Positions 11,321 to 63,340 are shown, numbered from the stretch's first letter. The stretch: DNA of 64,000 nt from Eledone cirrhosa (GCA_964016885.1 OZ024741.1:367040001-367104000); one strand, 5' to 3'. Notes: generated by a model not told the origin, from the letters alone. Numbers and translations: made by a program.

Positions 11321-13033
11321 TAATTATATATATGTGTTTGTAAATCAGCATTTGAATTCACAGAGAGGCTGGCCACAAAACATGATCGTCACTGTCAACG
11401 AACACAGAGAGAATCCTTATGGTTGATTCCCAACCTGCTAGAAATAGCAGTCGTTGGTTAGCACACCCAGGATGTTTTTCTTCTTTGATTTTATACAATT
11501 AGTATCAATAAACCTTCCATTGCTGTATTGACTCTTCGATTGTCAGTTTTCGTTTTTGTGTGATGTGTGAAAGCACCAACCAACAAGTATCTCTCTTTTA
11601 TATTATGTGTAGAGATATATATATTTATATAGTATTTTCTACATTCCACATGATCGTTGAATGGATTATCTGGCAAGTTAGTCATTGATAAGAATGATTA
11701 TGACAAGCTTAATATTTTGTTTGAGATAGAACATGATACATCTTGAAGTAAAGCTTATTATAAATTTATCTGCTACTGGCTTTGTCATCTTTATGCATAT
11801 TGAAACCACATCAACTAAATACAGATCTTAATCATTTGTTTTATGCCTTACTTGTTATTTCTGTGAGGTTCTTTAACTCCAACATTTGTAGAAGTGGTAC
11901 AGCAGTTTGTTGTTACAGCTCACACCTATGTAGGCTTAACTGGCCCTCTATGAAGTTACATCTCAGGTTTCTCAGATGTTTCGATAATAGGAGGCCCAGT
12001 TCTGCCATGAAAAGACTACCCTACTGGACCAGATGCCAATACATTGAAAGGGTCCCTTCTCAGCTGCTACTATGATACTAATTTTTTTCTTCTTTTTAGC
12101 AGAGTGGACTGGAGTAATGTAAAATGACATAGCATACCACCATGTCTTGGAAACAAACCCACGACTTTGATTGTGAGTGCAATACGCTAACTACTAGGCT
12201 AAGTGTTGGGATTAGATATCTTGCAAATGTCAAGAGAATTATAAAAGACAACGCATTGGTTGAATAATCTTCCCTCAGTATGAAGAGTATGTTTTAACAC
12301 TTGATACTACCTGAAACCACTCCTTCCCCTAATTCTATGTTACTTTAAAGTGATTTTAGTTATCTGAATAATCTTCCATCATAATTTTATGCGAGAACAT
12401 TTAAGATATGCTCTAAACACCAGCTTGATAATTTAGAAAGTTGTATTACTAAATCCATTTAAATTCTTGAAAATCATAATCTGTGTTTTGCAATAGAAAT
12501 ATAGTAATGGGAGGGTTAAATGACCTGATGCCTCTTAGTTATGTTTGCATTGATAGTAATATGATAATATTGTTTAAAGAAATTTATCCAAAATCTGTTG
12601 ATGACAGAGCAACAAATATAATATTGCTATATAATATATATCTGATGGCATCACATTATTTTTCATCGTATTTCACTTATATTTAAATGTATCATTTAAG
12701 TTTATCATAAAAATATTAACGGTTATATTGTATTGATGAATATATATGCAAGCATGGAACATAGATGTAAAAGAATGGTGATAGCATTAGAAACGGCATC
12801 GAGTTGTTGAAAGTTTGTCATACAAAGGGGATTCTTCAGTTGTGTGAAAGACATAACAACCTCCTTAGTGTTGGGGCCATGATGAAACACCCAGTACACT
12901 CTACAATGAGATGACAAGATAAAACCCCCTCCAAACTTCCTCTGCATGTTTGGGAGGTCTGTGACTCTAGATGGGTACTGAGGTATTGACAACTCATCCA
13001 GCCCTTGCTAGCAGAGAAAAGGAGTATTAAATG

Positions 13034-17998: not shown

Positions 17999-20142
17999 AT
18001 AAATATAAACAGTTAAAAACAAAACCATTTTGTATCCTAGAATCAAAAGCAGTTCCAGGAGGTTTTAGTATCAAAAGGTTTTAAGTTCTTTCTAAAACAC
18101 ATTTTCATATTTATTGTACATGGTTTCTAGAATTACTGTCCTCTCTTCCTGTATGATAGTAAGTTTGAAAGAACATCAAATTTAAACTTCCCCCGTCTAA
18201 CCCATGCTAGCGTGGAAGAACGGACGTAAAACGGTGATGATGATGATGCAATATTAAAGATTCATATGCATAGCATGGCTGTATGGTTATGGAATTCTTT
18301 TTGCAACTACATGGTCTCATGCTATGTCAGTGAAATTTGGAGAATAGAAATTGTGCAGAAGCCATGTCATATGTAAATGGGTGTGTATGTCTGTATTTTA
18401 GCGTTTTGCAAACGTATAATTACCAAGATCGATATGATTAACTGAGTCCCTATAAGACAATGCCTCGGCATGACCTCAGTAAAATTATTGAGACCAGTAA
18501 AAAAGAATAAAAAAGAGTAAAACAAATACAGATTTCAGATGTATTTCCCTTTATTGAATTAAGCTAGAATAGTAAATCAGAACTCAAGGAAAGAAATATT
18601 GGGGTTGGTGTATACTTGCCTCTTCTGGAACTATGGAATAAGGAATTTTGCCACACTAGTTAAGAAAACAAAAAACAAATCTTCTTTATACCAAACTGCT
18701 TGAAACTGGCCCTGGTTTTATAAAATCAAACTCTTTCAAACTTTTTATGTTAAAAAAAATCTTTAATGTCCATCCATCAGCTTAATTTTAAAAAAAAAAA
18801 AAAAAAAAATGCTGTTACTGAACCCCTCCAAATTTTTCATTATTTTCAAAATTAATTAAAAAAAAAAAATATGTTGATGAAATAACTTATTTCAAACTTA
18901 GTAATTTTATTAAATAAATAAAAAAGTACATTATGACAGACATTATGCCAATTAAATTGTAGTTTATGTGTAGGATTGTAAAGGTGACCAATAGATTTAA
19001 CCCTTTTCATATCAACATCTTCATCATTGTAAATGTTTTTCTATGCCGGCATGGGTTGGATAGATCACCACAGTCCAAGCCAAGTCGAGTCAGATAACCA
19101 GATCTTGCTCATAGGTTCCACATTTGTAATGGTTTCTACAGCAGGATGCTCTTCCTAACACCTCTCATTTCTACAGCTGGAAGCCCTTCCTATCACCGAT
19201 CGTATTACATATATAATTTTTTAAAAATAATTATTTGATTCTCAGTTCAGTAACTGTCTTTTTTCTTGCTCACAGGTATAGTTCTTTTCTTTTTAGTTAT
19301 TACTCTAAATTTTCTTTTAAATACTCTGGAAGCTTGATAGAATACTTAAGAGGATTTCAAAAATTCTATAGCACTTGGCAAATATCTTTAATATTATTTC
19401 ACAATCTTAAGGATTTAAGAACCTAAATTTCGTTTATTATTAAATTTGTGTGTGTATGTGTGCAAGTATAATGCTGTGTGTGTTTTGTATGTCTCAAGGA
19501 ATTAATGTGGATTATTGTGCATCAAGAATTGATATTTATGCATATTTGCTGAAGAAAAATATTCAATTGAGTATGCCTTTTATGTATACTATATTTTATT
19601 ATGTCTGTGTACACTATCTTGAACTTCATAATTCCTGCTATTCTTTATTATATTTGTATTTGATTATTATTGACCATCCCCTAATTAACTGCTTAATCAA
19701 CTAACTGACTGACCACTGTCTTTTTTCTTCTCTTTTACTACTTTGCCAAATTTACTATGGATACAGTAAGTAACATATCCTAACATCTTTTCTACATTTC
19801 TCTGTTCAGATTTGCTAATTTTTATTAATGGCTAAGGTCAGAGTGATGACCTTTCATAAGATATTTCTAAAAGTATCTCACTTTGAAATCTATTTGCTAG
19901 CATGTCTGTTTTATGCCTTACCATTTGTATTCTGACATTTTCCTGAGAGATACTTCGGCAAGAAGACATAGAATGAAACCTGAAGTTCCCAAAAGATTTA
20001 AGGAAAGCAAACTTTTATTGTTGGCATTTCTGCAAATATATAATATTGATTTCTTATATTATTTTATTACAAAGTCATCATTATCACTACATGTAGACTT
20101 GGGAAGTCTATCTATATGTTTGCTGCCATTTTATTATGGCAG

Positions 20143-31678: not shown

Positions 31679-34341
31679 ATATAACTCTTAACAGGACATG
31701 GTATAGCCATGTTTGTGCTGAATGAATTTAGACTGCCAAACCTAGTATTATTCCACCTGTGTGGTAGGAAAGCAATTTGATAGTTTATTTAACTGGGGGA
31801 ATATATATGTGTTGCATTTCATGGTTCATTAGCTTACATTAAGAACAGCAAGAGTTCTAAATGCAAACATGCATTTAAAAAGGATACACAAAAAAAAAAA
31901 AAAAAAAAAAAAAGTGAAAGAAAGTAGCAGACATCAAGTCATTTGGTAATAGGCTGCAATCAATAATTGGCAAAAGTGAATTTATTACAAATTTGATGAT
32001 AGGAAGAGAAGGCGTCCAGCTGTAGAAACCTGCCTATTAAAGGTTCAAGGGAACTCTTCGGTTGTGACAAACCTCGCTAGTGCTGGTGTCACAATAAAAC
32101 ACCCAGTGTACCCTGTAGGGTGTGGAAATATGTGTAAGATGCCCCCTCCCTGACTGCCTGAGAGGTCAGTGGCTGTGACTTAGTAATGACTTGTTCTGTG
32201 ACAACCCTTCCAACCCTTGCTAGCTGGGGAAACGGACATTAAATGATGATGATGCATATATATGTATTTATATGTGTATATAGTGATCGAAAGAATAAAA
32301 AAAAAAAAACAATAAGTTATTATTAGGCTTATGCTCTGGAGAAATTAAAAGGAATTGTTTTGGATTATGTTGAGGCAAAGGGCCACATGTGGACAGAAAG
32401 GTTATATAGCAGCAAACTGACTGGATGTGGTTGGGTGTATAAGCAGTAATGTGGTGAGATGGTGGTATAGGTCTAAATGTCATGTAGTTATTAATTAGTC
32501 TCTTCTATTTACATGTTCAAATCACAGTGACACAACCTTTGGTTTGCATGAAATATTTACCTGTAATATACTGTAATATTTACCTGTGTTAGTTTAATCA
32601 ACTCTAGCTTTCTTTTGCCAAAATGAAATATGAAAATGAGCAATAATTGTCTTAGTTTGTTAAATGTTTCCATTTTTTTTTCCTTGTTAATTTTAAAATT
32701 CTTATTTTTTTTTATTGTTAATTTTTAAAATTCTTATTTTTTAAATATTTATTTTGCTTTCTAACAGGTTTTTAGAATTAATTTTGTTGAAAAATGTTTT
32801 GTCTAATTATGAAAATGTATTGAATACACATATTTCTATATTTGTATATAGTATGCTATATATAAACATTATTTGAATGTACACAGGATACATGAAAGGA
32901 AAGGAGTATTAAAAAAAAGGGGGGGGGGTATTAGTGCAAATGTGTCTAGTGGTTAGGGTGTTGGACTCAAGATAAAATTGTTGGTTCAATTCTTGGACTG
33001 GGCAGCAATTGGTTCTTGAGGATGACCCTTCATTTCATGCTACTTTTCACGATATAACTGGAGCTCCTACCATTATATACTCCTGAGAAACTTCCTATAT
33101 GATACAACTTGCATAGGTGCGAGCTGTAATTTTTTTTTTCATTTTGTGTGTGTGTAAAATAGAGAGTTTAAGAGTGAAGAATAGGAAAAATAGACTATAC
33201 TAATTGAGTACAAAGAGGAAGCTTTTTTTTTTTAAACCAGAAGATGGATTGTGAGTCAATTTAAGATGACAAATATTAATTAAATATCTACTTTCTTATT
33301 TATGCATAATTTTATAATTATTCTTTGAGAATAATTATTTGTATTTGTTTAATTTTGGTTAACTAATGAGAATGAAATAAAAATTGCTTAAATAGTAAAG
33401 AAATAAATGTCCGTTTTATAAAAACAAATTTAAAGCATAAAAGATAGAGAAATGTTGATATTTCATAGTGTACATCTTTTTTTTTTATTTATTATTTTTG
33501 TTATTAACCATAGCTACAGGGCTTAAATCTTTGGTATGATTAAATATTTTCTATGGACAAATAATAATCCCTTTGATACCAAACCGCCTGAAGCTACCGT
33601 TGTTTTGTTCTGAACACCAGATTAACTCATTGTTATGCAAATTTTAACAACAATTTGTCCATTTGTAAAGATACTATAGACATTTGAATTAACAAACTAG
33701 TCTTTAGATATTTTCACCTAAATCACCATGGGATGTAAAGAGTTAAGGGCACTCTCCTTGCTGAAGGAGTTAGTCATGTGGGATTCTATGGCAGGCTTCA
33801 TAATCACCACAGAATCCTGTTTTTAGACAATGATTTATGGTTGATTACCCTTGGTGCCAACCCATTGTTGTTTCTCACGACACACGGCTACAGCATACTT
33901 ATTTTAAGCCTGATATATATCATCATCATCGTTTAACGTCCATATTCCATGCTTGCATGGGTTTGGACGGTAATATATGTATGTATGTATGTATGTACGT
34001 GTGTGTGTGTGTGTGTAAAAAGAAAACCACCTAAAACAAACTTGTTATGGGTTTGAACCTGGCATCTTCTAATCTCTAACCAGGAAGCATTATCCATTAC
34101 ACCACAAAATAGCTAGAATAATACATATATTTTGAGAAATAACCTTGGTAATACAATGAAAGAATGCATCTAGGAAGGTTTTTAAATGCTATTAGATATT
34201 CTTTTTGATATTTCCAAGCACAATTATATATTCTGAATTTTTCAGTATGTTTTGAACTTTGAAATATTATTCGTGTATATCAGTTTGTATTTTCTTCAGA
34301 ATTGATAATATTTAATAGCTTCATAATTTAATAGAATATAT

Positions 34342-38073: not shown

Positions 38074-39010
38074 ATGGCTTGTGAAAGTAGTGATACAGAC
38101 TATGAAGGTTTTACGCACGAAGACAATTCAGAATGAACAAGAAACAAAAGATAATATTAGTGATTTATCTTCAAATAAATCAGATGTTTACATTTCTGAA
38201 ATTTCATCCGACGATGATTGTTGATTTGAAAGTGAAAACGGAGATCTCCAGGACGCGGTTGAAAATATTACAGCAACGTGGTTGAAAAATACCACACCAA
38301 TATATGTTCCCGATTTTATTCAAAATACTGGTTCACAACACACATTAGCTCCCGATGCTAAAGCACTGGATTATTTCTTTTTGTTTTTACCACAAACTTT
38401 CTTCGAAGTTAAGGCAGAAGAGATTAATCGATATGCCCAACAACAGATTTCAAATTGAGGAAAACCCGATCTGTTTGGCGACCGACAGATGCTGCGGAAA
38501 TGCAAGCATTTTTTACCGTAAGGAGGCACATGGCTTAGTGGTTAGAGCATTGGCCTTGCAATCGAAAGGTTGTGAGTTCAATTCTCAGACCGAGTGATGT
38601 GTTGTTTCCTTGAGCAAGACACTTTATTTCACATTGCTCCAGTTTACTCAGCTGTAGAAATGAGATGATAGGGACTGGGGTCCATATCATTCCACTGCAA
38701 AGTGGTCGTGGAGGTGCCACGGCAAAAATGCACCCAGCACTCACTGTAAATGAGGTTGGTGTTAGGAAGGACATCCAGCTGTAGAAATCAAGCCAGAATC
38801 AGTTCCCGTCCCACCCTTGCAAGCAGGGAAAAAGTGGACGTAAAATGAAATGAAAATGATGATTATGTTCGGTATAAAACAATTTCCAAGACTGGAATTA
38901 CTGGAGCACTGATATAAGGTTTAGTGATCCTTATATATCAAGTATTATGCTGAAAACAACGTATTTAAAATTAAGCCAGTATTTGCACCTGGTTGATACT
39001 TCAAATGCCC
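38074..39010 (+). pseudogene. piggyBac (PGBD4-like, DDE_Tnp_1_7) transposase N-terminal remnant, interrupted by a SINE
   Basis: Acidic N-terminus, then DAKALDYFFLFLPQTFFEVKAEEINRYAQQ / WRPTDAAEMQAFF [SINE] IMFGIKQFPRL / YWSTDIRFSDPYISSIMLKTTYLKLSQYLHLVD. Confidence 0.82.
38522..38862 (+). mobile_element. Young tRNA-derived SINE with RTE-derived 3' region
   Basis: A box TGGCTTAGTGG, B box GAGTTCAATTC, body CTTGAGCAAGACACTTTATTTCAC, RTE 3'UTR module and terminal hairpin. Confidence 0.9.
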
Positions 39011-40589: not shown

Positions 40590-41890
40590 GGGGGGATAAA
40601 AAAAAAAGTTCGGAATTTTATCGTAGTAAGAAAAAAATAGATTAAAATAATATTAAACATGTGAGAACATTGTCACTGGGTCTTTACCTTGCTATTAGTC
40701 ACTTGCAGTCAGTTACGCGTGGACTATTGTACAGTACTGATACTCTTTAAACAACCTCTTTTTGGAACAATGGAAAATAGTTATTTTGAGATAAGATCGA
40801 ATATCAAGTTTCTGGTGAAACTCAAATGGAAAGGGACACAGATTATGGAGGCTTTAGTTAAAGTTTACAGTACTACTGCTCCAAAGAAAACTGCTGTCTA
40901 CAAATGGATTCAGCGATTCAAACAAGGGAGAGACGACCTTGAAGACGACCATCACAGTGGAAGACTAGGAACATCAAAACGTGGACCAAAGAGGCTACTC
41001 AGACTTTAATTGAAGATCGAAGAATAACAGTTAATCAGTTAGCTAAGTCCCTAGACATTTCATATGGTTTGGCAAATTCAATTCTGCACGATAATTTGGG
41101 ATTAAGCAAGCTTTCAGCGCGATGGGTCCCAAAAGCGTTGCGCCCTGATCAGCTGATTCTTCGAAGTGATCTGTCTTTGGCGATATTAAACAAAATTGAA
41201 GTTGATGAAGAGCATTTCCTGACCAGAATCATCACCGGAGATGAAACCTGGATCTACCAGTATGATCCTGAATCCAAACAGCAGTCAAAACTGGCTTCCA
41301 CGTGGATCATCGGGGCCAATCAAGTTCAAATCTCAAAAGTCGGATCAAAAAGTGATGGCCACCATTTTCTGGGATTTAGATGGGGTGATACTAATAGATT
41401 ATCTTGAAGGTCAAAGAACTGTGACAGGAGCTTACTATGCAAATGTTTTAAGGAAGCTGAAAGAGGCATTAGTCAAGAAACGAAAAGGGAAACTTCATGG
41501 TGGGATCTTGTTTCACCATGACAATGCACCAGCGCATTCTGCGTGGCTTGCAAAAGAAGTTCTTCGGGGATTTCGATGGGAAGTGCTTCCTCACCCGCCT
41601 TATAGTCCAGATTTAGCCCCATCAGACTTTTTCCTCTTTTCAAAACTCAAAGACATGCTAAAAGGAACCCGTTTTAGTGGTGTTGAAGAAGCTAAAAACA
41701 CTGCCAACACATGGCTTCGAACAAGGCCTTCAACTTTCTTTAGAGACGGCTTACGAAGCTAGAAGCATCGCCTTGTCAAGTGTATTGACCTGGATGGCAA
41801 CTATGTAGAAAAATAAATTGAAGGCAAATCATATTTTTGGAAAAATAGAATATTTTCTGAAAAATTCCGCGAACTTTTTGATCCCTCCTC

Positions 41891-41926: not shown

Positions 41927-44038
41927 TCATCATCATCATCATCATCAACGTTTAACGTCCGTGTTCCACGCTTGCATGGGTTTGGACGGGGGTAGTCCCA
42001 CTTGAGGCAAGAGTGATTGTCTTGCTCGCATAGGACTGTCTGGCAGGTTTTCTACAGTTGGATGCCCTTCCTAACACCAACCACATTTACAGTGTGGGTC
42101 TGGGAGGTTTTTACCGTGTTGCCTACACGGCCACATTACAGCGTGGACTGTGTGTTTTTTTGTCGTGACACCTACACGATCTCATTTGTTTCGGCCTCGA
42201 TGGCGCGGCACCAACATAACTTTACATAGAACGGGGTGGTGTGGATCGGGTGGTGGTGGTGGGACGGGGTGTATTTTGTTAGAGATGCCTACTGGCTGGA
42301 GTAGGTTTTACTATATATTTAGGTAAGGCGGGTCTTCTCTGTTACTGAGTACCGCCAAAGGTCTCGGTCCAGTGACATTGTCTTGGAGAGGTGTAAGTGT
42401 GTGATGTCGGAGTTTATCAGCTCGTCCCAGGTTTTTCTAGGTCTGCCTATTCCGTGACTACCGTCTATCTTTATTGCCCTGCACTTTGTTATACAGCTAT
42501 CGACTTTCATGCGCATCACGTGTCCATACCAACGTAGCCTTCTCTCGAGTAAACAACATCTGATCCCTCTTATCTCTAATTTTTTCCTTAGTTCGTTTAT
42601 GCTTTGCCGTTCACGTATATTACTGTTACACATCCAGCGGAGCATGCAAGCTTCGTTCCTCTCTAGTCTGCGTATATCCTCTGCACACAATGCCCAGGTC
42701 TCACTGCCATGCAGCATTGCTGTTCGTATGCAGGCATCGTACAACCTGCCTTTCATTTTTAGTGAGAACCCTTTAGCAGCTAATAGTGGTATAAGCTCTC
42801 TGAACTTTTTCCAACCAGTTCTGACTCTAGCTACAGTACTTTCAGAGCACCCTCCCCCACTGCTGATTTTATCGCCCAGGTAACGGAAGCTGTCCACTAT
42901 TTCTATAGAACCCTCTGCGCAATTGAAAGAGCTAGTAGTTTGTGGGCACTTGCTGCTACTTATTGCACCAGAGCACCGGCCACATGTAAAATCTATGTTC
43001 TTAGTTAGCTTACCTGTGATCCCACTACATCTTTTATGCACCCATACTTTGCATTTAGGACATAAAATGGAGTTTCTACCTACGCCTTTCCTACACACCG
43101 AGCACGACCATTTCCCAGAAGGGACCGCCGCCTTGTTTTCTTTCCTACAAACTAGTACTTTGGTCTTAGCCAGGTTAATTTTAAGTCCTTTTGACTCTAG
43201 GCCGTGCTTCCATGTTTGGAATTTCTTCTCTAGCTCGGCCATTGATTCCGCTATGAGTGTCAGGTCGTCTGCGTATAGGAGTTCCCATGGGCAGCCTGTC
43301 TTGAACTCCTCTGTTATAGCCTGAAGGGCAATAATAAATAGTAGTGGACTGAGAACAGAGCCCTGATGGACGCCAACTTTTACGCTAAACTCTTCACTAT
43401 ATTCGTTGTTAATTCTAACCTTGCTGACTGTTTCTTTATACATGGCTTGTATAGCCCTCACAAGCCATTCGTCAACGCCTAGTTTTCTAAGAGCCCACCA
43501 GATAATGGAGCGGGGGACTCTGTCGAAGGCTTTCTCCAAATCGACAAAAGCTAAGTAGAGGGGTTTACCTTTAGCTAGGTACTTCTCCTGTAGTTGTCGT
43601 ACTATGAAAAGAGCGTCTGTGGTACTTTTGCCTGACACAAACCCGAACTGCATTTCATCTAGGTCAATTCTCTCTCTGATTAGTTGCGCTATTACTTTTT
43701 CCGTGACCTTCATGACCTGGTCGATTAATTTAATGCCTCTATAGTTACTCCTATCTAGGGCGTCTCCTTTACCCTTATAACAGTTAACGATGATGCTGCT
43801 ATGCCAGTCCTTCGGAACAACCCCATTCTGTACGACTTGGTTAACTATGCGGGTGACCATGGTGTGTCCCACCGTGCCAGATGCCTTCAGCATCTCAGCA
43901 ACTATTTCCGAAGGCCCAGCCGCCTTACCAGTCTTCATATCCTTGATTGCCTTACTTATTATACTCCCCTCGACTAACACTGCTGGTCCCTCTATTGGGT
44001 CGATATGGGGGAGACTGCCTTTCTCCCAATTATTCTCC

Positions 44039-44480: not shown

Positions 44481-45056
44481 CATCATCACCATTTTACGTC
44501 GATTCTTCCACGCTAGCATGGGTTAGAGGGGTTGTCCTGTTGTGGGCAATGTTAGGTCGGGCTGACCTTGTCTTGCTCATGTGGGAACTGATTTTAGTTT
44601 GATTTCTACAGCTGGATGCCCTTCCAAACACCAACCTCATTTACAGTGAGTACTGGGTGCTTTTTTCCGTGGCGCCTACATGTTCACTTTACAGTGCGGT
44701 CTGGGTGCTTTTTTTGTTGTGACACCTCAACAACACTTTGCAATGAAATGGGGATGGGGGCATATTGCCTATATGCTTCGGCTTCGGCTCATTCCTGTGG
44801 GAAGTCGGGTCATCTGTATTACTCGTGACGCCAGAGGTCACGGTCCTGTGTCCTCACTGCTGAGAGGTGCAATTGGGCAACGTCCGCTTTTATCACCTCG
44901 TCCCAGGTTTTCTTGAGTCTCCCCACTCCACAGCTCCCATCAACTTTTAGTGCTCTGCACCTTTTTATGCAGCTGCCATCCTTCATACGCATCACATGTC
45001 CATACCAATGCATCTTCCTCTCCTGCACATAGCATTTGATTCCTCTTATGCTCATT
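44481..45056 (-). mobile_element. Short 5'-truncated RTE LINE (same subfamily as 55536-58162)
   Basis: C-terminal ORF piece WYGHVMRMKD..GRLKKTWDEVI, a matching 3' UTR and a (CAT)n tail. Confidence 0.9.
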
Positions 45057-45059
45057 CTT

Positions 45060-53245: not shown

Positions 53246-54699
53246 TCAGATAAAAACTGTTTGACAAAATCTTTTGGGCCAGTGGACTCTTCGACTGGAA
53301 CGGGTCATGGTCTTGTGTGTAGGTGAAGGTGGGGCAGAAAGAGCAGGTGTATGCACAACAGTGAAAGATGGGGGTATATGTGGCTCAGGTGTATGAGCGT
53401 CTGTGTATGCTCTTTTCAGTCTGTCAACCAAAATTGTCTCTCTGGATCCCTTAATGTCTACAGTAAAATGTTTGTTAGTACGTGCTAACGCAAGGTAGGG
53501 TCCAGAGTACGGTTGTGTGAGAGATGGTCTAACAGTGTCATCTCTGACAAAGACATGTGTCCACGAGGCAATATCTCTTGGGACTGCAATTTTAACAGTT
53601 TGTTTCCTGGTATCCATAGGCGGTAAATCCTGAAAATACGAGCGCAAACGAGATACATAGGAAAGGGGATCTTGAGTAACAAGATCAACAGGGGCAAGCA
53701 ATTGCCCAGGCAACGCTAGAGGAGCACCATACAACAATTCAGCCAGGGAGAACCCAAGGTCCTCCTTTATTGAAGACCGAATTCCTAACAACACAATAGG
53801 AAGGTACTCGCTCCAACGCAGAGAGTCTGGATAAGCACGAAGAGTGGCCTTTAATTGGCAGTGAAAACGCTCCACCATTCTGTTTGAAGCAGGATAAGAT
53901 GAGGTCTGAATGCGTTGAGCGCCAATAATTTTTGTTAACTCCGAGAAAAGATGTGATTCGAATTGCCTACCACGGTCTGTAGTAATTGTGGTTGGCACGC
54001 CATAGCGGGCAATCCACCCTGATGCCAGGGCACGCGCTATCGTGTTGGCGGTAATGTCCTTTAAGGGGATGGCTTCAGGCCATCGCGAAAAACGATCAAT
54101 GCAGGTCAAAAGGTAAGAATATCCACTACTGACTGGCCAACGATATCGATGTGGATGTGTTGAAAACGAGCATCCGGAGTACTAAAAGTACCTTGTGGAG
54201 CCCGGGTGTGTCTGTGGACTTTAGATTTTTGACACTGTATGAAGGAACGGCACCAAGCATTAATTTCACGCCGCATATTTGGCCAGAAAAATCTAGCTGT
54301 TATGAGCTTTACTGTGGCTGAAGATCCTAGTTGAGAAATGCTGTGCAAAGCAAGGAACACAAATCGACGGTGTGTCTCGGGAACATAAGGTCGTGGTGAA
54401 TCCGTAGATACATCGCAGAGAATCTGCCTGTCGATAGTCGACAAGGGCAGATATTTCAGGTTGCAAGTTGCAAATTCAGCTGATGAAGTATCCAACGATT
54501 CGAGTGCAGGTTGGTCTGCTGCCAAACGACTTAAATCTATCTCCTGGGATGACGAAATTGAGCTGATTGGCAAACGTGATAAGGCGTCTGCGGCTGTGTT
54601 TAGTGAGCCAGAAATGTGCTGGATATCATTGGTAAACTGCGAAATGTAATCGAGGTGCCTTGTCTCTCTGGGCGAATATCTGTCGGCTTTACCCCTCAC
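53246..54699 (-). pseudogene. Gypsy pol 3' part: RNase H C-terminus, decayed HHCC zinc finger, DDE integrase, GPY motif; frameshifted
   Basis: RHLDYISQF..NTAADALSR; H..FFWPNM..QCQKSK; HIHIDIVG; DRFSRWPEA; TDRGRQFES; N.MVERFH; PYSGPY. Confidence 0.92.
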
Positions 54700-54952
54700 T
54701 GAATTGGTTTATTGGTTTAATCTTGTCCGGAAGATACCGCTGGTAACCAACCACATCCGGGCATGCAAGATAGAGGTGATACGCTCTGGACATATAGTGT
54801 TCAGTTCCGAAGTAGTTGCAAGAGTATAGAGAGCTGCTCGTCAGAATGAGGCCGGCAGCGAATAAAAATGGGAAACACAAGTCTCGTCTATTTATAATGC
54901 CTACAGAAGTAACTCTAATTAATTCTCTTTTTTTACCCTAGGGGTCGCTACA
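54700..54952 (-). repeat. Gypsy 5' LTR (fused directly to the RNase H end; no PBS visible)
   Basis: Direct repeat of 52760-53034. Confidence 0.9.
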
Positions 54953-55535: not shown

Positions 55536-58162
55536 ATCATCATCATCATCACCGTTTTACGTCCGTTCTTCCACGCTAGCATGGGTTAGACGGGTTGTCC
55601 TGTTGTGTGCAGTGTCTGGTCGGCTGACCATGCCTTGCTCATAGAGGAACTGATCTGGCTTGATTTCTACAGCTGGATGCTCTTCCTAACACCAACCTCA
55701 TTTACAGTGAGTGCTGGGTGCTTTTTCGTGGCGCCTAGACGTCCACTTTACAGTGTGGGCTGGGTGCTTTTTTGCCGTGGCACCTCCACGACCACCTTGC
55801 GGTGGGGGCATATTGTTTATATGCTTCAGCATGTACCCATGTGAGGTCGGGTACTCTGTATTACTGCGTGACGCCAGAAGTCACGGTCGTGTGTCATTGT
55901 CTTTGAGAGGTGTAATTGGGTAAGGTTGGCTTTTATCACCTCATCCCAGGTCATCTTGGGTCTCCCCACTCCGCGGTTTCCATCAACTTCTAGTGCTCTG
56001 CACCTGTTTATGCAGCTGTCATCCTTCATACGCATCACATGTCCATACCAGCGCAACCGCCTCTCCTGCACACAGCATTTGATTCCTCTTATGCTCAGTC
56101 TCTCTCTCAATTCATTTATGCTTTGTCGTTCACGTATATTACTGTTACACATCCATCGGAGCATGCAGGCTTCGTTTCTCTCTAATCTACGTAAGTCTTC
56201 CACCTTCAGCGCCCAGGTCTCACTACCATGCAACATCGCTGTTCGGATACACGCATCATACAGTCTGCCTTTCATTCTGAGAGAGAAGCCTTTTGCAGCT
56301 AGCAGTGGTAGTAGTTCCCTAAACTTCTTCCATCCCATTCTTACCCTAGTTATTGTACTTTCTGAACACCCACCTCCGTTGCTAATTCGGTCACCTAGGT
56401 AGCAGAAGCTGTCTACTGTTTCTACAGGGCCCTCCCAGAGATTGGTGGTACTTGTTTCCTGTGGCTGTTTGCTGCTTGCTGTTTCAGCACAGCTGCTGCA
56501 TGTGAATCCTACATTCTTAATTAAGCTTCCTGAGATCCCGCTACATCTCTTGTGTACCCATTGTTTGCATTTGGGGCAGAGAATGGAGTTCCTACCTACA
56601 CCTTTCCTACATACTGAGCAAGGCCATTTCCCTGAGGGGATCTGGGTTCTGTTTTCTCGTCTACTTACAAGGACCTTAGTCTTTGTCATGTTGACTTTGA
56701 GACCCTTTCTCTCTAGTCCCTGCTTCCAGGTTTGGAATTTATTCTCTAGTTCTATCATAGATTCAGCTATGAGTGCGAGGTCATCAGCATACAGGAGTTC
56801 CCATGGGCATCCGGTCTTAAATTCCTCCGTTATTGCCTGCAGGACTATGATGAACAGGAGAGGGCTAAGAACAGAGCCCTGGTGGACCCCAACCTGAACG
56901 CTAAATTCCTCGATATACTCATTGCTAATCCTAACTTTGCTGACTGCTCCCCTATACATGGCTTGTACCGCTTTCACAAGCCATTCATCTACTCCTAGTT
57001 TTCTAAGAGCCCACCAGATTACAGCACGTGGAACTCTGTCAAAGGCTTTATCAAGGTCGACAAATGCCAAGTAGAGTGGCTTACTTTTAGCTAGGTACTT
57101 TTCCTGTAATTGCCTCACAAGGAAGAGGGCATCAGTGGTGCCTCTTCCTGGTACAAACCCAAATTGCATCTCGTCTATATTCACCCGGTCCCTAATCAGC
57201 TGTGCTATAACTCTTTCTGTTACTTTCATGACCTGGTCCATCAACTTTATACCTCTATAGTTTCCTCTATCTAGTGCATCGCCTTTGCCTTTGTAGCAGT
57301 TGACAATGATGCTACTGCACCAATCTTTTTGTATGGCCCCTTCTAGTATTACCTGGTTAACGATACGTGTGGTTATAGTGTGACCTACAGACCCAGATGC
57401 CTTCAGCATCTCGGCAGCTATACCCGATGGACCGGTTGCCTTCCCCATCTTCATATCTCTGATTGCCTTACTTACTACGCTGCCGCTGACTTGTACTGCT
57501 GGTCTCTCTATAGGGTCTACTTGGGGTAGGGTCTCTTCTTCCCATGCATTCTCCTCATTTAGTAATCTATCATAATGACTCTTCCATGCATCTTTCTTCT
57601 CAGCACTTGTGAGGGCAAGCTCACCTTTATTATTCCGGATACACTTCTCTCCAATGACATCACAACTATCTCTGACACACTGCCTCGCAATCTTGAATAC
57701 CTCCTGTTTCTGGTCCTCACGTTGTAAAACATGCTTGAATTTTCTATCCTCTGCTTCCCGCCAGCTAAGTATACTTGTCGCCTAGCTTCCCTCTTGGTCT
57801 CTATGTAATGTACCCTGCTCCCCCCGTTCTTCCATTCTTTCCATGCCTGTCTCTTGGCCTTGACTGCTTCATCTACCTTATTGTTCCACCACCAAGTCAC
57901 TCTCCTCCTCCTGCTTGTGGTCTTATTATTTTTTAGGAACTCCCAGTTCTCTTCTACGTTAAATGTCTCTATCTGTTCTTCTTTACTGTCGTAGGCGTTA
58001 AGTAAAATATCTTTAAATCTGTTACTGGTTGAGGGGACTTTCAGCTTCCAGATCTTTCTTCTCCAGGTTGGCCTCTGTTTCAGGGCTCGTCTAGTTCTGA
58101 CCGTGAGGTCGCTGACAACTAAGCTATGTTGGGATGTACATTCCTCACTAGGGAAGGCTTTT
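55536..58162 (-). mobile_element. RTE-clade LINE, 5'-truncated at the end of the APE endonuclease, frameshifted upstream of RT
   Basis: RT ORF 55826-57454; upstream WWWNNKVDEAVKAKR linker fragment; AFPSEECTSQHSLVVSDL (C-end of APE) near 58110-58160; (CAT)n tail. Confidence 0.95.
55826..57454 (-). CDS. RTE LINE reverse transcriptase fragment with internal PHD finger
   Basis: Same motif set as 42319-43980 (FVDLDKAFD, QGSVLSP, YADD, CSVC..CPKC..WVHKRC..CSSC, FCYLG); a related but distinct subfamily. Confidence 0.95.
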   Translation of the reverse strand: MKMGKATGPSGIAAEMLKASGSVGHTITTRIVNQVILEGAIQKDWCSSIIVNCYKGKGDALDRGNYRGIKLMDQVMKVTERVIAQLIRDRVNIDEMQFGFVPGRGTTDALFLVRQLQEKYLAKSKPLYLAFVDLDKAFDRVPRAVIWWALRKLGVDEWLVKAVQAMYRGAVSKVRISNEYIEEFSVQVGVHQGSVLSPLLFIIVLQAITEEFKTGCPWELLYADDLALIAESMIELENKFQTWKQGLERKGLKVNMTKTKVLVSRRENRTQIPSGKWPCSVCRKGVGRNSILCPKCKQWVHKRCSGISGSLIKNVGFTCSSCAETASSKQPQETSTTNLWEGPVETVDSFCYLGDRISNGGGCSESTITRVRMGWKKFRELLPLLAAKGFSLRMKGRLYDACIRTAMLHGSETWALKVEDLRRLERNEACMLRWMCNSNIRERQSINELRERLSIRGIKCCVQERRLRWYGHVMRMKDDSCINRCRALEVDGNRGVGRPKMTWDEVIKANLTQLHLSKTMTHDRDFWRHAVIQSTRPHMGTC

Positions 58163-60355: not shown

Positions 60356-60538
60356 GAGGTGGATTGGCAGTATCGGTAGAGGGTCGGACGCCATGCTTTC
60401 CAGCATAGTTACGTCCTTTTACGATCTGAGTTCAAATCCCGCCGAGGTTGACTTTGCCTTTCATCCTTACGGGGTCGATAAAATAAAGTACCAGTAACGC
60501 ACTGGGTAATTGCTGGCCTTGTGCCTAAAGTAGAAACA
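60356..60538 (+). mobile_element. SINE family 2 (TGGCAG..GAGTTCAAATCCCGCCGAGGTTGACTTTGCCTTTCATCC), young copy with 15-bp TSD
   Basis: B box; TSD ATTAATTAATTGAAA at 60341-60355 and 60539-60553. Older copies at ~310, 10105, 17265(-), 27480(-), 27655, 29115, 37600, 52045(-) and 62840. Confidence 0.88.
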
Positions 60539-60648
60539 ATTAATTAATTGAAATAGTACGGGGTCGATAAAATAAAGTACCAGTAATGTACTGGGTAATT
60601 GCTGGCCTTGTGCCAAAAGTAGAAACAATTAATTAATTGAAATAGTAC
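60469..60648 (+). repeat. 89-bp tandem duplication of a SINE 3' half plus its TSD
   Basis: ACGGGGTCGATAAAATAAAG...GAAATAGT occurs twice. Confidence 0.92.
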
Positions 60649-60673
60649 ATTTCATTTGAAATAGAGCCACAGA

Positions 60674-61124
60674 ATCATCATCATACATCCGCTTTTCCCT
60701 GCTTGCAAGGGTGGGACGGGTCTTATTCAGCACAGCATCTCTCCACTTGTCACGGTCCTTCGTCATCTCCACCGTGAGCTTCAGCGATCTGAGGTCTGTT
60801 CTCACCACCTCCACCCATGTTTTTCATGGTCTACCTCTACCACGTCTTCCTTCAACTGGCATTTCCTGGCACTTCACCCATCGGTCATCCTCCATGCGCA
60901 TCACATGTCCATACCACCTCAGTCTCCTTTCTCGCACACTACATTCTATCCCTCTCAGACACAGTTTCTCTCTCAACACATTCATGGTGGGTCATTCACG
61001 CACATTGACATTGCACATCCAACGGAGCATGCTTGCCTCATTTCTCTCCAGTCGTCGCATATCCTCTGCAGTTGTTGCCCATGTCTCACTACCATGCAGC
61101 ATCGCGCTCCTCACACAGGCATCA
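60674..61124 (-). mobile_element. 5'-truncated RTE LINE of a third subfamily with almost no 3' UTR
   Basis: Minus-strand RT C-terminus (MLHGSETW..RRLRWYGHVMR) running directly into the terminal hairpin CCCTTGCAAGCAGGG and (ATG)n. Confidence 0.9.
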
Positions 61125-63340
61125 TTATTAAAATTAAAAGCAGATGCTACTTTCAATGATAAATGTGTTTTAAGGCTATTTGCCCTTGCTAAAGAAAAGG
61201 TTAACCTTGTGGGACTCCATCATAGACTTCATTATCCTTTTTAAGGCAATGATTTACAGCCAAACCTTTTAGTCACTTCTTATGACACACTTGGAATGAT
61301 ATTCCTATTCTAAACTAGATACAATTACTAAGATACTAATCAGTAAAATTATTTTGTTAATGGGTAGCCATATAGTTATCTCTTCTTTATGATGAATGTG
61401 TTGTGCTAAAAATTCAGGTCTTAAAAATTTATCTTCATTTTTAGCCCTTGAAAATGCCATTGGTTCTATGACAGAAAACTTTATTTTTTAAGAGTTTATA
61501 TTTATCTAAAAAAAATCTTCCATCATAACACCAGCTTAAGAATAAGAAAGTTAGCTATATTACTAAATTCCCTTAAATACGAGATTATTTTCAAGATGAT
61601 TTGACAGTTTCATTAAAAATATGGTAATGAAAGAGTTAAGGACATGAGTAAGGTATGATGAATAAGATTTGATTATTATCTAACGTAGCAAAGAGACAGG
61701 ATGATGAGTAAGCCTATCAGGTGACAATAGAAACTTCCTCACTAGTAAATTTGTATCAAACTTATTTCTTCATAGGACCTATATAAAGTTTCTTAGATCA
61801 GGTCATTAATTAGATCCTCATCCGCTTTCCATACCGACATGGGCTGGACAGGTTGTCACAGTCCAAGACCAGACTGGTGTGACATCTTACTCAATGCATT
61901 CCATATTAGACATGGTTTCTATGATTGGATACCCTTCTACACCAATTGTATTACAGAGTATTGGTTGTGTCTTTTGTTGCATGTAAACTATCACTTAGAG
62001 TGGACTGGCTGCAACATGTTGTGGAACCAGTACTAGAGTGGTTTTCACATGTTTGGCCAGGCTGAAGAATACCCTCAATCCCTACTACAAAGGTTTCTAT
62101 TTTGTCACAACAATATCACAATTTATTTTGGATGAGGTGATCCAATATCATCAGAAAGCACTGTGTACTAGCAATTCTACCCAATACCTTAAGCTGTCAT
62201 ATATTTGTTTATTTTTAACCAAATGTTCAATACACGCTTAGTTGCAAAGAAAATATCAAGAATACATGGGAAAACAAATACCTGAAAGTCATCTTAATCT
62301 AGATTGATGTCTTGTAGATTATCTGATTGGTGTATTTTGGATTGCTTGGAAAATTCTTTCGGCTTTTTGATTTAGAAAATGTGTATTTAGTATTAGACTG
62401 TCATTTCTAACTGCTTACTGCTAAATTGGTTGGCATAACTGGAAATTCTTAGTCACTACCCTCTCTCTCTTTTTCTTTATCTCTCACTATATATATGCAT
62501 AGTAATGATATTACACAATATTGTGTTGGCTACCACCTGGTTTCATACTTAAACAGATCATTTTAAGATATGACATACTGTTTTGAATTAGGCTTTACAT
62601 ATAGCTAATTAATATAATGTTGTGTAATATCATTATGTAAATATATAGCTCTTCTACTGATATAGAGCATTCTCATCACTTGTTTATTGTTACACTATAT
62701 ACGTGTGTCTATATGGTCTCTGGTGGACTTGTGATAAGAAAACTGAGTTTACTATTTATTCCTACATTTCTCTATACAAATTAATTTGAAGAAAATATCA
62801 AAGTCTAATTTTAGCACGTAACATATGAGTTTCAAGAAGACTGAGAAGGTTTTGATGTTGTCGTGAACAAAGTATCTGTTGCTTTACATTCTGAATTCAA
62901 ATCCAACTACAATCCACTTTGTCTTTCATTTGGTGGTGATAAAATAGAATAACAGTTGACTACCATGTTGATATAATTGGCCATATAACCTCAACAAAAA
63001 GAAAAGAGATGTTTATCATTTTTACTAGTTTCATCATTAGACAATGGCCACACTAGTTATTCTCTTAAAGGGATACAGTTATCATATTGACCCCAGTACT
63101 TATTATTTTCAAGTCTGGTACATCAATCACTTTATTTCAAACCACTAATTTGTAGTTTCTATCTATCAAATAACATTTGCCCAAAGTGCCACATAGTGGA
63201 AATGAACTTGAAGTGACATGGTTGCAAAGCAATTTTAGAAATAAATACATTATTACTGATGTTAAAAATAGAGTAAAGAATTATTGAACCTCCCCAAATA
63301 GGATAGTATTATTCAAGTGTTTATTCAATGTTTTCCAAAT

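Follow-up and report, generated by a model that had tools for sequence, protein, structure and literature searches.

Predicted stacked pseudoknots in the 3′ untranslated region of an RTE-type retroelement of Eledone cirrhosa, and their likely relocation from a 5′ position

The flagged block and its element

In this study, we examined a stretch of 64,000 nucleotides (nt) from Eledone cirrhosa (GCA_964016885.1 OZ024741.1:367040001-367104000; called the window from here on), which carries several copies of a long interspersed nuclear element (LINE) that, judged by its architecture and by an untranslated region (UTR) segment in common with hagfish RTE-2/4_EBu, probably belongs to the RTE clade. 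The copy near 55 kb had been singled out, in a reading of the sequence alone, for a tandem array of compact pseudoknot-like modules behind its open reading frame (ORF). On the minus strand, the stop codon is followed by a small hairpin, modules A1, B1, A2 and B2, module C, a spacer of ~60 nt, a tail hairpin and (GAT)n, and the block of modules lies ~60-260 nt from the RNA 3′ end. The features of this copy are as follows.

55826..57781, minus strand: RTE-type ORF, 5′-truncated, with reverse transcriptase (RT) and then a PHD finger; stop codon at 55826-55828
55792..55805, minus strand: small hairpin preceding the array, possibly a shortened B-like module
55763..55792, minus strand: module A1, with a stem 1 of 6-7 bp and a loop able to pair 4-5 bp past an A-rich linker (predicted H-type pseudoknot)
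55743..55762, minus strand: module B1, with a predicted stem 1 of 3 bp, a predicted stem 2 of 4 bp and a UAAA linker
55717..55744, minus strand: module A2, damaged, with a private stem-1 change and a family-level C.A mismatch in stem 2
55697..55716, minus strand: module B2, with an A-U/U-A swap in stem 2 relative to B1
55657..55697, minus strand: module C, with a 6 bp stem and a loop able to pair downstream; its core is a segment seen in RTE 5′ UTRs and in short interspersed nuclear element (SINE) bodies of other animals
55536..55594, minus strand: RTE terminal tail hairpin and (GAT)n microsatellite

The open frame ahead of the block comprises 651 codons, and its product is 48-59% identical to full-length endonuclease-RT-PHD proteins. 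Copies in the window are 5′-truncated and hold RT and PHD finger; relatives at ~50% identity have a single ORF with endonuclease and RT. In protein P0001, the PHD finger (residues 388-431) is inserted past the RT domain, and its Cys/His residues are invariant across 35 aligned relatives.

All modules quoted in the sequence-only reading are present, namely A1, B1 and B2 in the flagged copy and those at 42179-42152, 42131-42105, 44735-44704 and 32080-32103. The A-B order is indeed repeated, although the ~47-nt unit described earlier has to give way to a B-to-B period of 46 nt in the 55-kb copy and 48 nt in the 42-kb and 44-kb copies, and Tandem Repeats Finder makes no tandem-repeat call on the flagged array. 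Of the two A modules in the flagged copy, the second is damaged. At 55738, in stem 1 of A2, the pairing base is found in ~99% of contig depth in run X1, which makes the change in the flagged copy private. At 55733, in stem 2, the pairing base is found in just 12% of X1 depth and 34% of X21 reads; since the C.A mismatch at this position is retained by most of the sequenced depth, it belongs to the family. Both crossing stems of an H-type pseudoknot are able to form in A1, B1, B2 and the module C of the 42-kb copy, but not in A2. The larger GGUUGG-type stem-loop reported after the array is also there, and is moreover able to form a third H-type pseudoknot, which we call module C. Its loop ends GGCA and the partner segment lies 9-11 nt downstream of the stem, giving a stem 2 of 4 bp in the 42-kb copy and of merely 3 bp in the 55-kb/38-kb family.

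Related copies in the window

Two further copies of the A-B-A-B-C block, an RTE fragment serving as internal control and an A-B unit in a different family were found in the window.

42042..42180, minus strand: A-B-A-B-C block, 3′ UTR of the second RTE subfamily (ORF 42319-44037; 77% amino-acid identity)
44596..44735, minus strand: third copy of the A-B-A-B-C block, following a short ORF end at 44825-45058
60674..61162, minus strand: RTE 3′ fragment without the block (56% identity; the ORF runs directly into the tail), the internal control
32077..32122, plus strand: A-B unit in another family, non-coding, in which module C precedes the unit; stem 2 of B has other letters

The same module order follows the ORF end in the 55-kb, 42-kb and 44-kb copies, and the module B/C stretch is 82% identical between the two RTE subfamilies. 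In the 55-kb and 42-kb copies the tail hairpin is followed by (GAT)n, in line with the short tandem repeats described for RTE-clade 3′ ends (PMC6007223, cited here, like the papers below, for the part of its text consulted). Two other labelled organisms have single contigs that run across the ORF-to-block junction. A solo 57-nt tail at 18192-18248 (plus strand) is identical to the tail of the flagged copy, which suggests recent activity of this RTE family. RTE-2_OV (PMC9115989), considered as a possible relative, has a microsatellite 3′ UTR and a C2H2 finger in the part of the description consulted, and seems to be another family.

The module A variant noted earlier at 32079-32104 is present, but it sits on the plus strand and in the different family listed above. 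This non-coding family, found at 31990-32255 and 12770-12910 (both plus strand), runs module C, spacer, A-B and RTE tail; the modules are shuffled between families.

Module C in the 5′ UTRs of other elements

A full-length relative in locus L002 (48% identity) retains an intact endonuclease-RT-PHD ORF of 1070 aa. Its ATG is found at 250, with module C ahead of it at 200, and a short tail follows the ORF directly. In a second L002 element and in one L195 element, module C stands immediately upstream of the endonuclease domain, and it is also present in the 5′ UTR of hagfish RTE-2/4_EBu as printed. Where measured or read, its distance from the start codon in 5′ UTRs is 35-40 nt. The B2+C stretch of the flagged copy is 58-73% identical to the 5′-UTR stretches of L002 and L187, with which it has a core motif in common. 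At the other end, the 3′ block is absent in 5/5 RT relatives with a visible 3′ end (six relatives were examined) and in the window RTE at 60674-61162. As far as sequence comparison reaches, module C is thus a 5′-UTR segment that stands at the 3′ end in the flagged lineage.

A 5′-UTR-homologous segment joined to an RTE tail is the mark of a bipartite RTE-derived element, and the flagged copy has it, with the tail ~60 nt after B2+C. Such elements are, however, also deleted for the ORF, and here the flagged copy, with its long open frame, departs from them; this second property is seen only in the SINE at 38524-38862, described below. Module C is retained in the bipartite elements L175/L183, in the SINEs L180/L185 and in the window SINE. 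Animal RTE or SINE sequences occur in assemblies labelled bacterial or archaeal (L001-L006, L023, L175, L183, L187 and L189) and are probably contamination. Among viral contigs, no RT relative was found, and motif scans gave 1, 0, 1 and 0 stretches; L162 resembled a chance match.

These positions bear on the function first proposed for the array, namely that stacked pseudoknots at the 3′ end act as a translation enhancer or exonuclease block replacing poly(A), as does the upstream pseudoknot domain of tobacco mosaic virus (TMV). The TMV domain is laid out with a short stem 1, an A-rich linker and a tandem array, which is a layout like that of the flagged block, and the block too lies towards the RNA 3′ end. 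The viral domain stimulates translation and is replaceable by poly(A) (PMC5382211). Nevertheless, other microsatellite-ended RTEs do without a 3′ block, module C is a 5′-UTR segment elsewhere, and the block is carried by non-coding SINEs. Rfam, furthermore, gives 0 matches at the gathering score over the window and none at E<=10 on the block, upstream-pseudoknot families included, while matches near the blocks are at chance level only. On these grounds we regard a tobamovirus-like substitute for poly(A) as improbable. Of the earlier functional model, a conserved structured RNA domain is supported, and its suggestion of RT loading comes close to the reading we prefer; its placement at the 3′ end as a stand-in for poly(A) is not supported.

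The slot directly 5′ of module C is filled in different ways. In L187 it holds a twister-P1 match (E 0.0019, below the gathering score) that ends exactly where module C starts; L002 has pseudoknot-compatible stretches there, and RTE-4_EBu, in its printed sequence, shows a hairpin, with another compact pseudoknot, read by eye, lying further upstream. Twisters are also found at the 5′ end of the RTE element Perere-3 (PMC8501958), and module B has the layout of short stem, loop and UAAA linker seen in the 3′ half of the twister (Rfam consensus). The A-B unit might therefore be a decayed or variant self-cleaving ribozyme from an RTE 5′ end. We hold this to be very unlikely, because the block gives no match to any ribozyme family at E<=10, although the twister in L187 is picked up by this search, and because the P2 stem and conserved loop letters of the twister are, by eye, absent from the block. 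Cleavage would also leave the LINE without its tail and the SINE without its promoter; 14085 restriction-site-associated DNA (RAD) reads nevertheless pass from the block into the SINE body. Finally, the window copies start at differing points. As a separate observation, the last strand of a twister-like ribozyme overlaps the first strand of module C at L187:416-475 and near 1500 (minus strand) in L195, an overlap that could permit a fold switch after cleavage.

Evidence for the predicted folds

A generic scan for compact pseudoknots found four in the 42-kb block, a number matched by 0/60 shuffles, and two in the 55-kb block (8/60 shuffles); the 44-kb block and the SINE block gave one each (40/60 and 23/60 shuffles, respectively). 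As MAFFT misaligned the variable linkers, tests of stem 2 were run on anchored registers; the 62-kb copy, which was unparsed, was left out, and the 42-kb copy's second module A, with its shifted 3-bp pairing, was scored 0. Stem-2 complementarity exceeded that of base shuffles in both module B (0/5000) and module A (p 0.0016). In module B, cognate partners also outscored permuted ones (51.5 vs 40.3, p 0.003, 15 copies), and did so after removal of near-duplicates (33.0 vs 26.5, p 0.04, 10 representatives); four older copies of the module show poor stem-2 pairing. Stem 1 of module B is complementary in nearly all copies and almost invariant within the window, and in stem 1 of module A 78% of cells are paired.

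For module C, a search returned 30 distinct matches on contigs of prokaryotic assemblies, of which 16 were called animal elements by eye and post hoc, 13 were bacterial chance matches, and the 30th row, a truncated L195 junction, was set aside. A stem 2 of 4-5 pairs is available in 16/16 of the animal-type loci, which represent about nine families related by descent, as against 4/13 bacterial chance matches and a shuffle rate of 32%. In a 14-row alignment, 79% of cells are paired vs 24-54% when the strands are slid, and stem 2 alternates between G-C and G-U (6/14 at one pair). The loop of module C is conserved in sequence.

Consistent with these results, the predicted pseudoknot folds are plausible and partly supported. 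A number of findings nevertheless weigh against them, or against a 5′ origin of the whole block. Behind the module B signal stand two or three variants (CCAC/GUGG, CUCA/UGAG and the 32-kb form), that is, few independent events, and as stem 1 of B barely varies, covariation is seen in stem 2 alone, as it would be for a plain hairpin. Stem 2 of module A is without covariation (p 0.68 by partner permutation, 11 copies), and the two-sided changes in its stem 1 number 2, a count reached by 184/500 shuffles; one of these, C-G to U-A at a CpG on both arms, could be explained by methylation decay alone. Covariation in module C does not rise above shuffles (69/500), and the 5′ strand of its stem 2 was fixed by the search pattern. 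A metagenome scan (1/64 parts) yielded for the most part a single SINE-like family, which has a hairpin instead of modules A/B upstream of module C; stem 2 of module C was mostly absent from the matches (41/116 vs a 28% null). By helix energies with a generic pseudoknot penalty, an estimate that omits coaxial stacking and base triples, the best nested fold is at least as stable as the pseudoknot in each of 6 modules. Modules A and B have no sequence match in any 5′ UTR examined, the flagged family's own 5′ UTR is missing from the window, and a leftover ancestral tail at the ORF end was indicated in 3/18 comparisons at p<0.05 (uncorrected, in a weak test).

Set against the covariation in both stems that marks an H-type pseudoknot, paired variation is limited to one stem per module and to few independent events. 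The compensatory changes described in the sequence-only reading can accordingly be recognised at one stem-2 position of B and in two stem-1 cells of A, but not in stem 2 of A. Covariation in stem 2, which had been offered as the check on which the idea should stand or fall, is absent in module A, where it speaks against the fold, and narrowly present in module B.

The conserved loop of module C would also suit a segment that acts as DNA, that is, an RTE 5′-UTR internal promoter or transcription-factor site that now stands at the 3′ end, and binding by transcriptional regulators has been proposed for conserved RTE 5′-UTR segments (Kojima 2018, PMC5786205). The paired changes in stem 2 of B and the consistent alternation of G-C and G-U in stem 2 of C point instead to RNA pairing, and we give a DNA-level role very little credence.

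A SINE that carries the block

The block also occurs in a non-coding element of the window, for which the following features were recorded.

38524..38862, plus strand: tRNA-type-headed SINE whose A/B boxes and CORE-like body are followed by a single A-B unit, then module C, and which ends in the tail of the RTE family without the block
38640-38664, plus strand: B-like module ending the CORE-like body of this SINE, beginning 32 nt past the CORE motif, with a 9-nt loop
28237..28447, minus strand: second, 3′-truncated copy of the 38524-38862 SINE (97% over 159 nt)

The A/B boxes of the head and the CORE motif were recognised by eye, with MIR-like spacing, and ARAGORN calls no tRNA. In the B/C stretch, the SINE block agrees with the 55-kb block at 96% identity and with the 42-kb block at 82%, and is therefore most simply taken from the 55-kb subfamily. 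Kojima's supplement (2018, PMC5786205) prints a MIR1_AMi consensus in which the B-like module has a counterpart: the 32-nt spacing and stem 1 are unchanged, the loop again measures 9 nt and stem 2 has 5 bp, with, by eye, one U-A/C-G swap in stem 2 between the two; the MIR comparison, like the Ceph comparison below, is a by-eye reading of few printed rows and carries no statistics. In genome contigs, the pattern of CORE plus module B gave 0 stretches.

Among RAD reads, whose depth is biased by restriction sites and whose variants are unlinked and drawn from 40 of 250 variant rows, 14085 pass from the LINE into the SINE body at 55805, 12008 switch to the other tail at 55654, and one 46-nt unit is missing from 3733. 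Such variation in unit number is what would be expected if the block were a passenger, a SINE body captured in the 3′ UTR and duplicated by slippage, in which the real folds are plain hairpins (stem 1 of A, stem 2 of B, stem 1 of C) and the 3′ copy has no special job. This is the main rival to the explanation given below. It would agree with the equal estimated stability of nested folds and pseudoknots, with covariation that touches one stem per module, and with a module order that differs among families. It sits less well with the retention of a two-unit block in two subfamilies at 77% protein identity (82% in the B/C stretch), with the persistence of the crossing pairs of module C in many lineages, and with a stem 1 of B that is complementary in nearly all copies. 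We consider it unlikely, if still deserving of attention.

A further tRNA-type SINE lies at 60360-60650 (minus strand) and has an 89-nt internal duplication. Its body ends in a stem, an A-rich linker and a 5-nt partner that may be another pseudoknot, as may, in the printed sequences, the UCON3 body of hagfish SINEs.

Proposed explanation and significance

The best explanation, to which we assign a probability of roughly 0.5, is that predicted H-type pseudoknots are stacked as A-B-A-B-C in the RTE 3′ UTR, that they were likely relocated from a 5′-UTR position, and that they likely form a position-independent handle into the RTE protein complex. Because each module is marginal alone, the pseudoknots would have to be stabilised by mutual stacking and by the A-rich linkers. 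In an ancestor of the lineage, the template would have been switched to a bipartite non-autonomous element, made of a 5′ domain and a tail, with duplication of the A-B unit after this switch; the SINE may later have acquired the block from the 55-kb subfamily, dropped one unit and exchanged tails. If the handle is not bound to the 5′ end, such a 3′-UTR capture by template switching with later duplication would be possible.

The main job of the block may be to mobilise RNA, through protein loading, through ribosome docking where the protein is made, or through RNA stability. Non-coding SINEs in several phyla keep the segment while swapping heads and tails, and as these parasites retain the block without coding, mobilisation rather than translation of the carrier RNA would be its task. 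The Alu domain is a known precedent for a SINE fold that is required in retrotransposition.

More tentatively, and with doubts of our own, we suggest that RTE UTRs and conserved SINE bodies, the CORE of mammalian MIRs among them, have a hidden element in common: one small pseudoknot, single or in stacks, made up of a 3-bp stem, a short loop, a stem of 4-5 bp and a UAAA-type linker. It might dock RNAs on the ribosome or on LINE protein as the Alu domain does, and its transfer here out of the 5′ UTR into the 3′ UTR, followed by multiplication, would show it to be portable.

Neither the sequence segment nor bipartite SINEs are new, but no earlier account seems to exist of the predicted fold, of A-B units in tandem or of a 3′ placement in an element with an ORF. 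In agreement with the earlier statement that no description was known, a search of the open-licence literature found no pseudoknots in RTE UTRs (HDV-like and twister ribozymes aside) or in CORE/Ceph domains, with subscription journals, Repbase reports and patents outside its scope. Conserved SINE bodies and RTE 5′-UTR segments have long been catalogued, and their function is not agreed (Kojima 2018, PMC5786205). A concrete fold of 20-25 nt with named pairs makes this question testable, MIR-type SINEs included. RTE UTRs are being optimised empirically for RNA-based gene insertion (PMC13708176), and a structural map of them would therefore be useful. Moreover, an autonomous-type LINE with a 5′-type domain at its 3′ end would make every 5′-truncated copy a ready SINE-like unit.

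Other features of the window

Two features of other kinds were noted.

53246-54708, minus strand: integrase core and zinc-binding domains of a long terminal repeat (LTR)-type element
41223-41762, plus strand: Mariner-type DDE transposase fragment adjoining the tail of the 42-kb RTE

Comparison with known systems

Among the closest known systems is that of hagfish RTE-2/4_EBu, which in its published form has the same module C core and the same downstream stem-2 partner, both retained by non-coding SINEs. There, however, module C is in the 5′ UTR and the consulted account proposes no structure, whereas here it stands in the 3′ UTR of an autonomous-type element, behind an A-B-A-B array.

Bipartite RTE-derived SINEs with the RTE 5′-UTR/Ceph domain (Kojima 2018, PMC5786205) likewise join a 5′-UTR part to an RTE tail. 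In contrast to our proposal, the consulted part of that paper puts forward no structure and suggests a function at the DNA level. Its supplement, as far as consulted, contains 0 matches to the module C core motif, and the Ceph/RTE 5′-UTR domain would thus be another sequence family. By eye, the Ceph-SINE/RTE-3_BF segment nonetheless starts with what may be a pseudoknot shaped like module B, both of whose stems are spelt differently, and in another RTE row one stem-2 pair is altered on both sides. In the same supplement, the conserved 5′-UTR motif of BovB can be read by eye as an H-type pseudoknot with paired first-stem changes across families. The CORE domain's 3′ half, in the printed MIR1_AMi consensus, reads as module B, with a 3-bp stem 1, a 9-nt loop, an A-rich linker and the 32-nt spacing; it differs in being a single module in a SINE body, and one consensus was compared by eye.

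With the TMV/tobamovirus upstream pseudoknot domain, the flagged block has in common tandem compact H-type pseudoknots, here predicted, in the 3′ UTR of an RNA without poly(A). It differs in that neither a sequence nor an Rfam match links the two, in belonging to a retroelement, and in that its modules also occur in non-coding RNAs and module C in 5′ UTRs. The twister at RTE 5′ ends (Perere-3, PMC8501958) resembles our system in two respects, as it fills the slot directly 5′ of module C in L187 and its 3′ half recalls the layout of module B. Unlike the twister, the flagged block has neither twister core nor match, and it lies inside transcripts that must remain whole.

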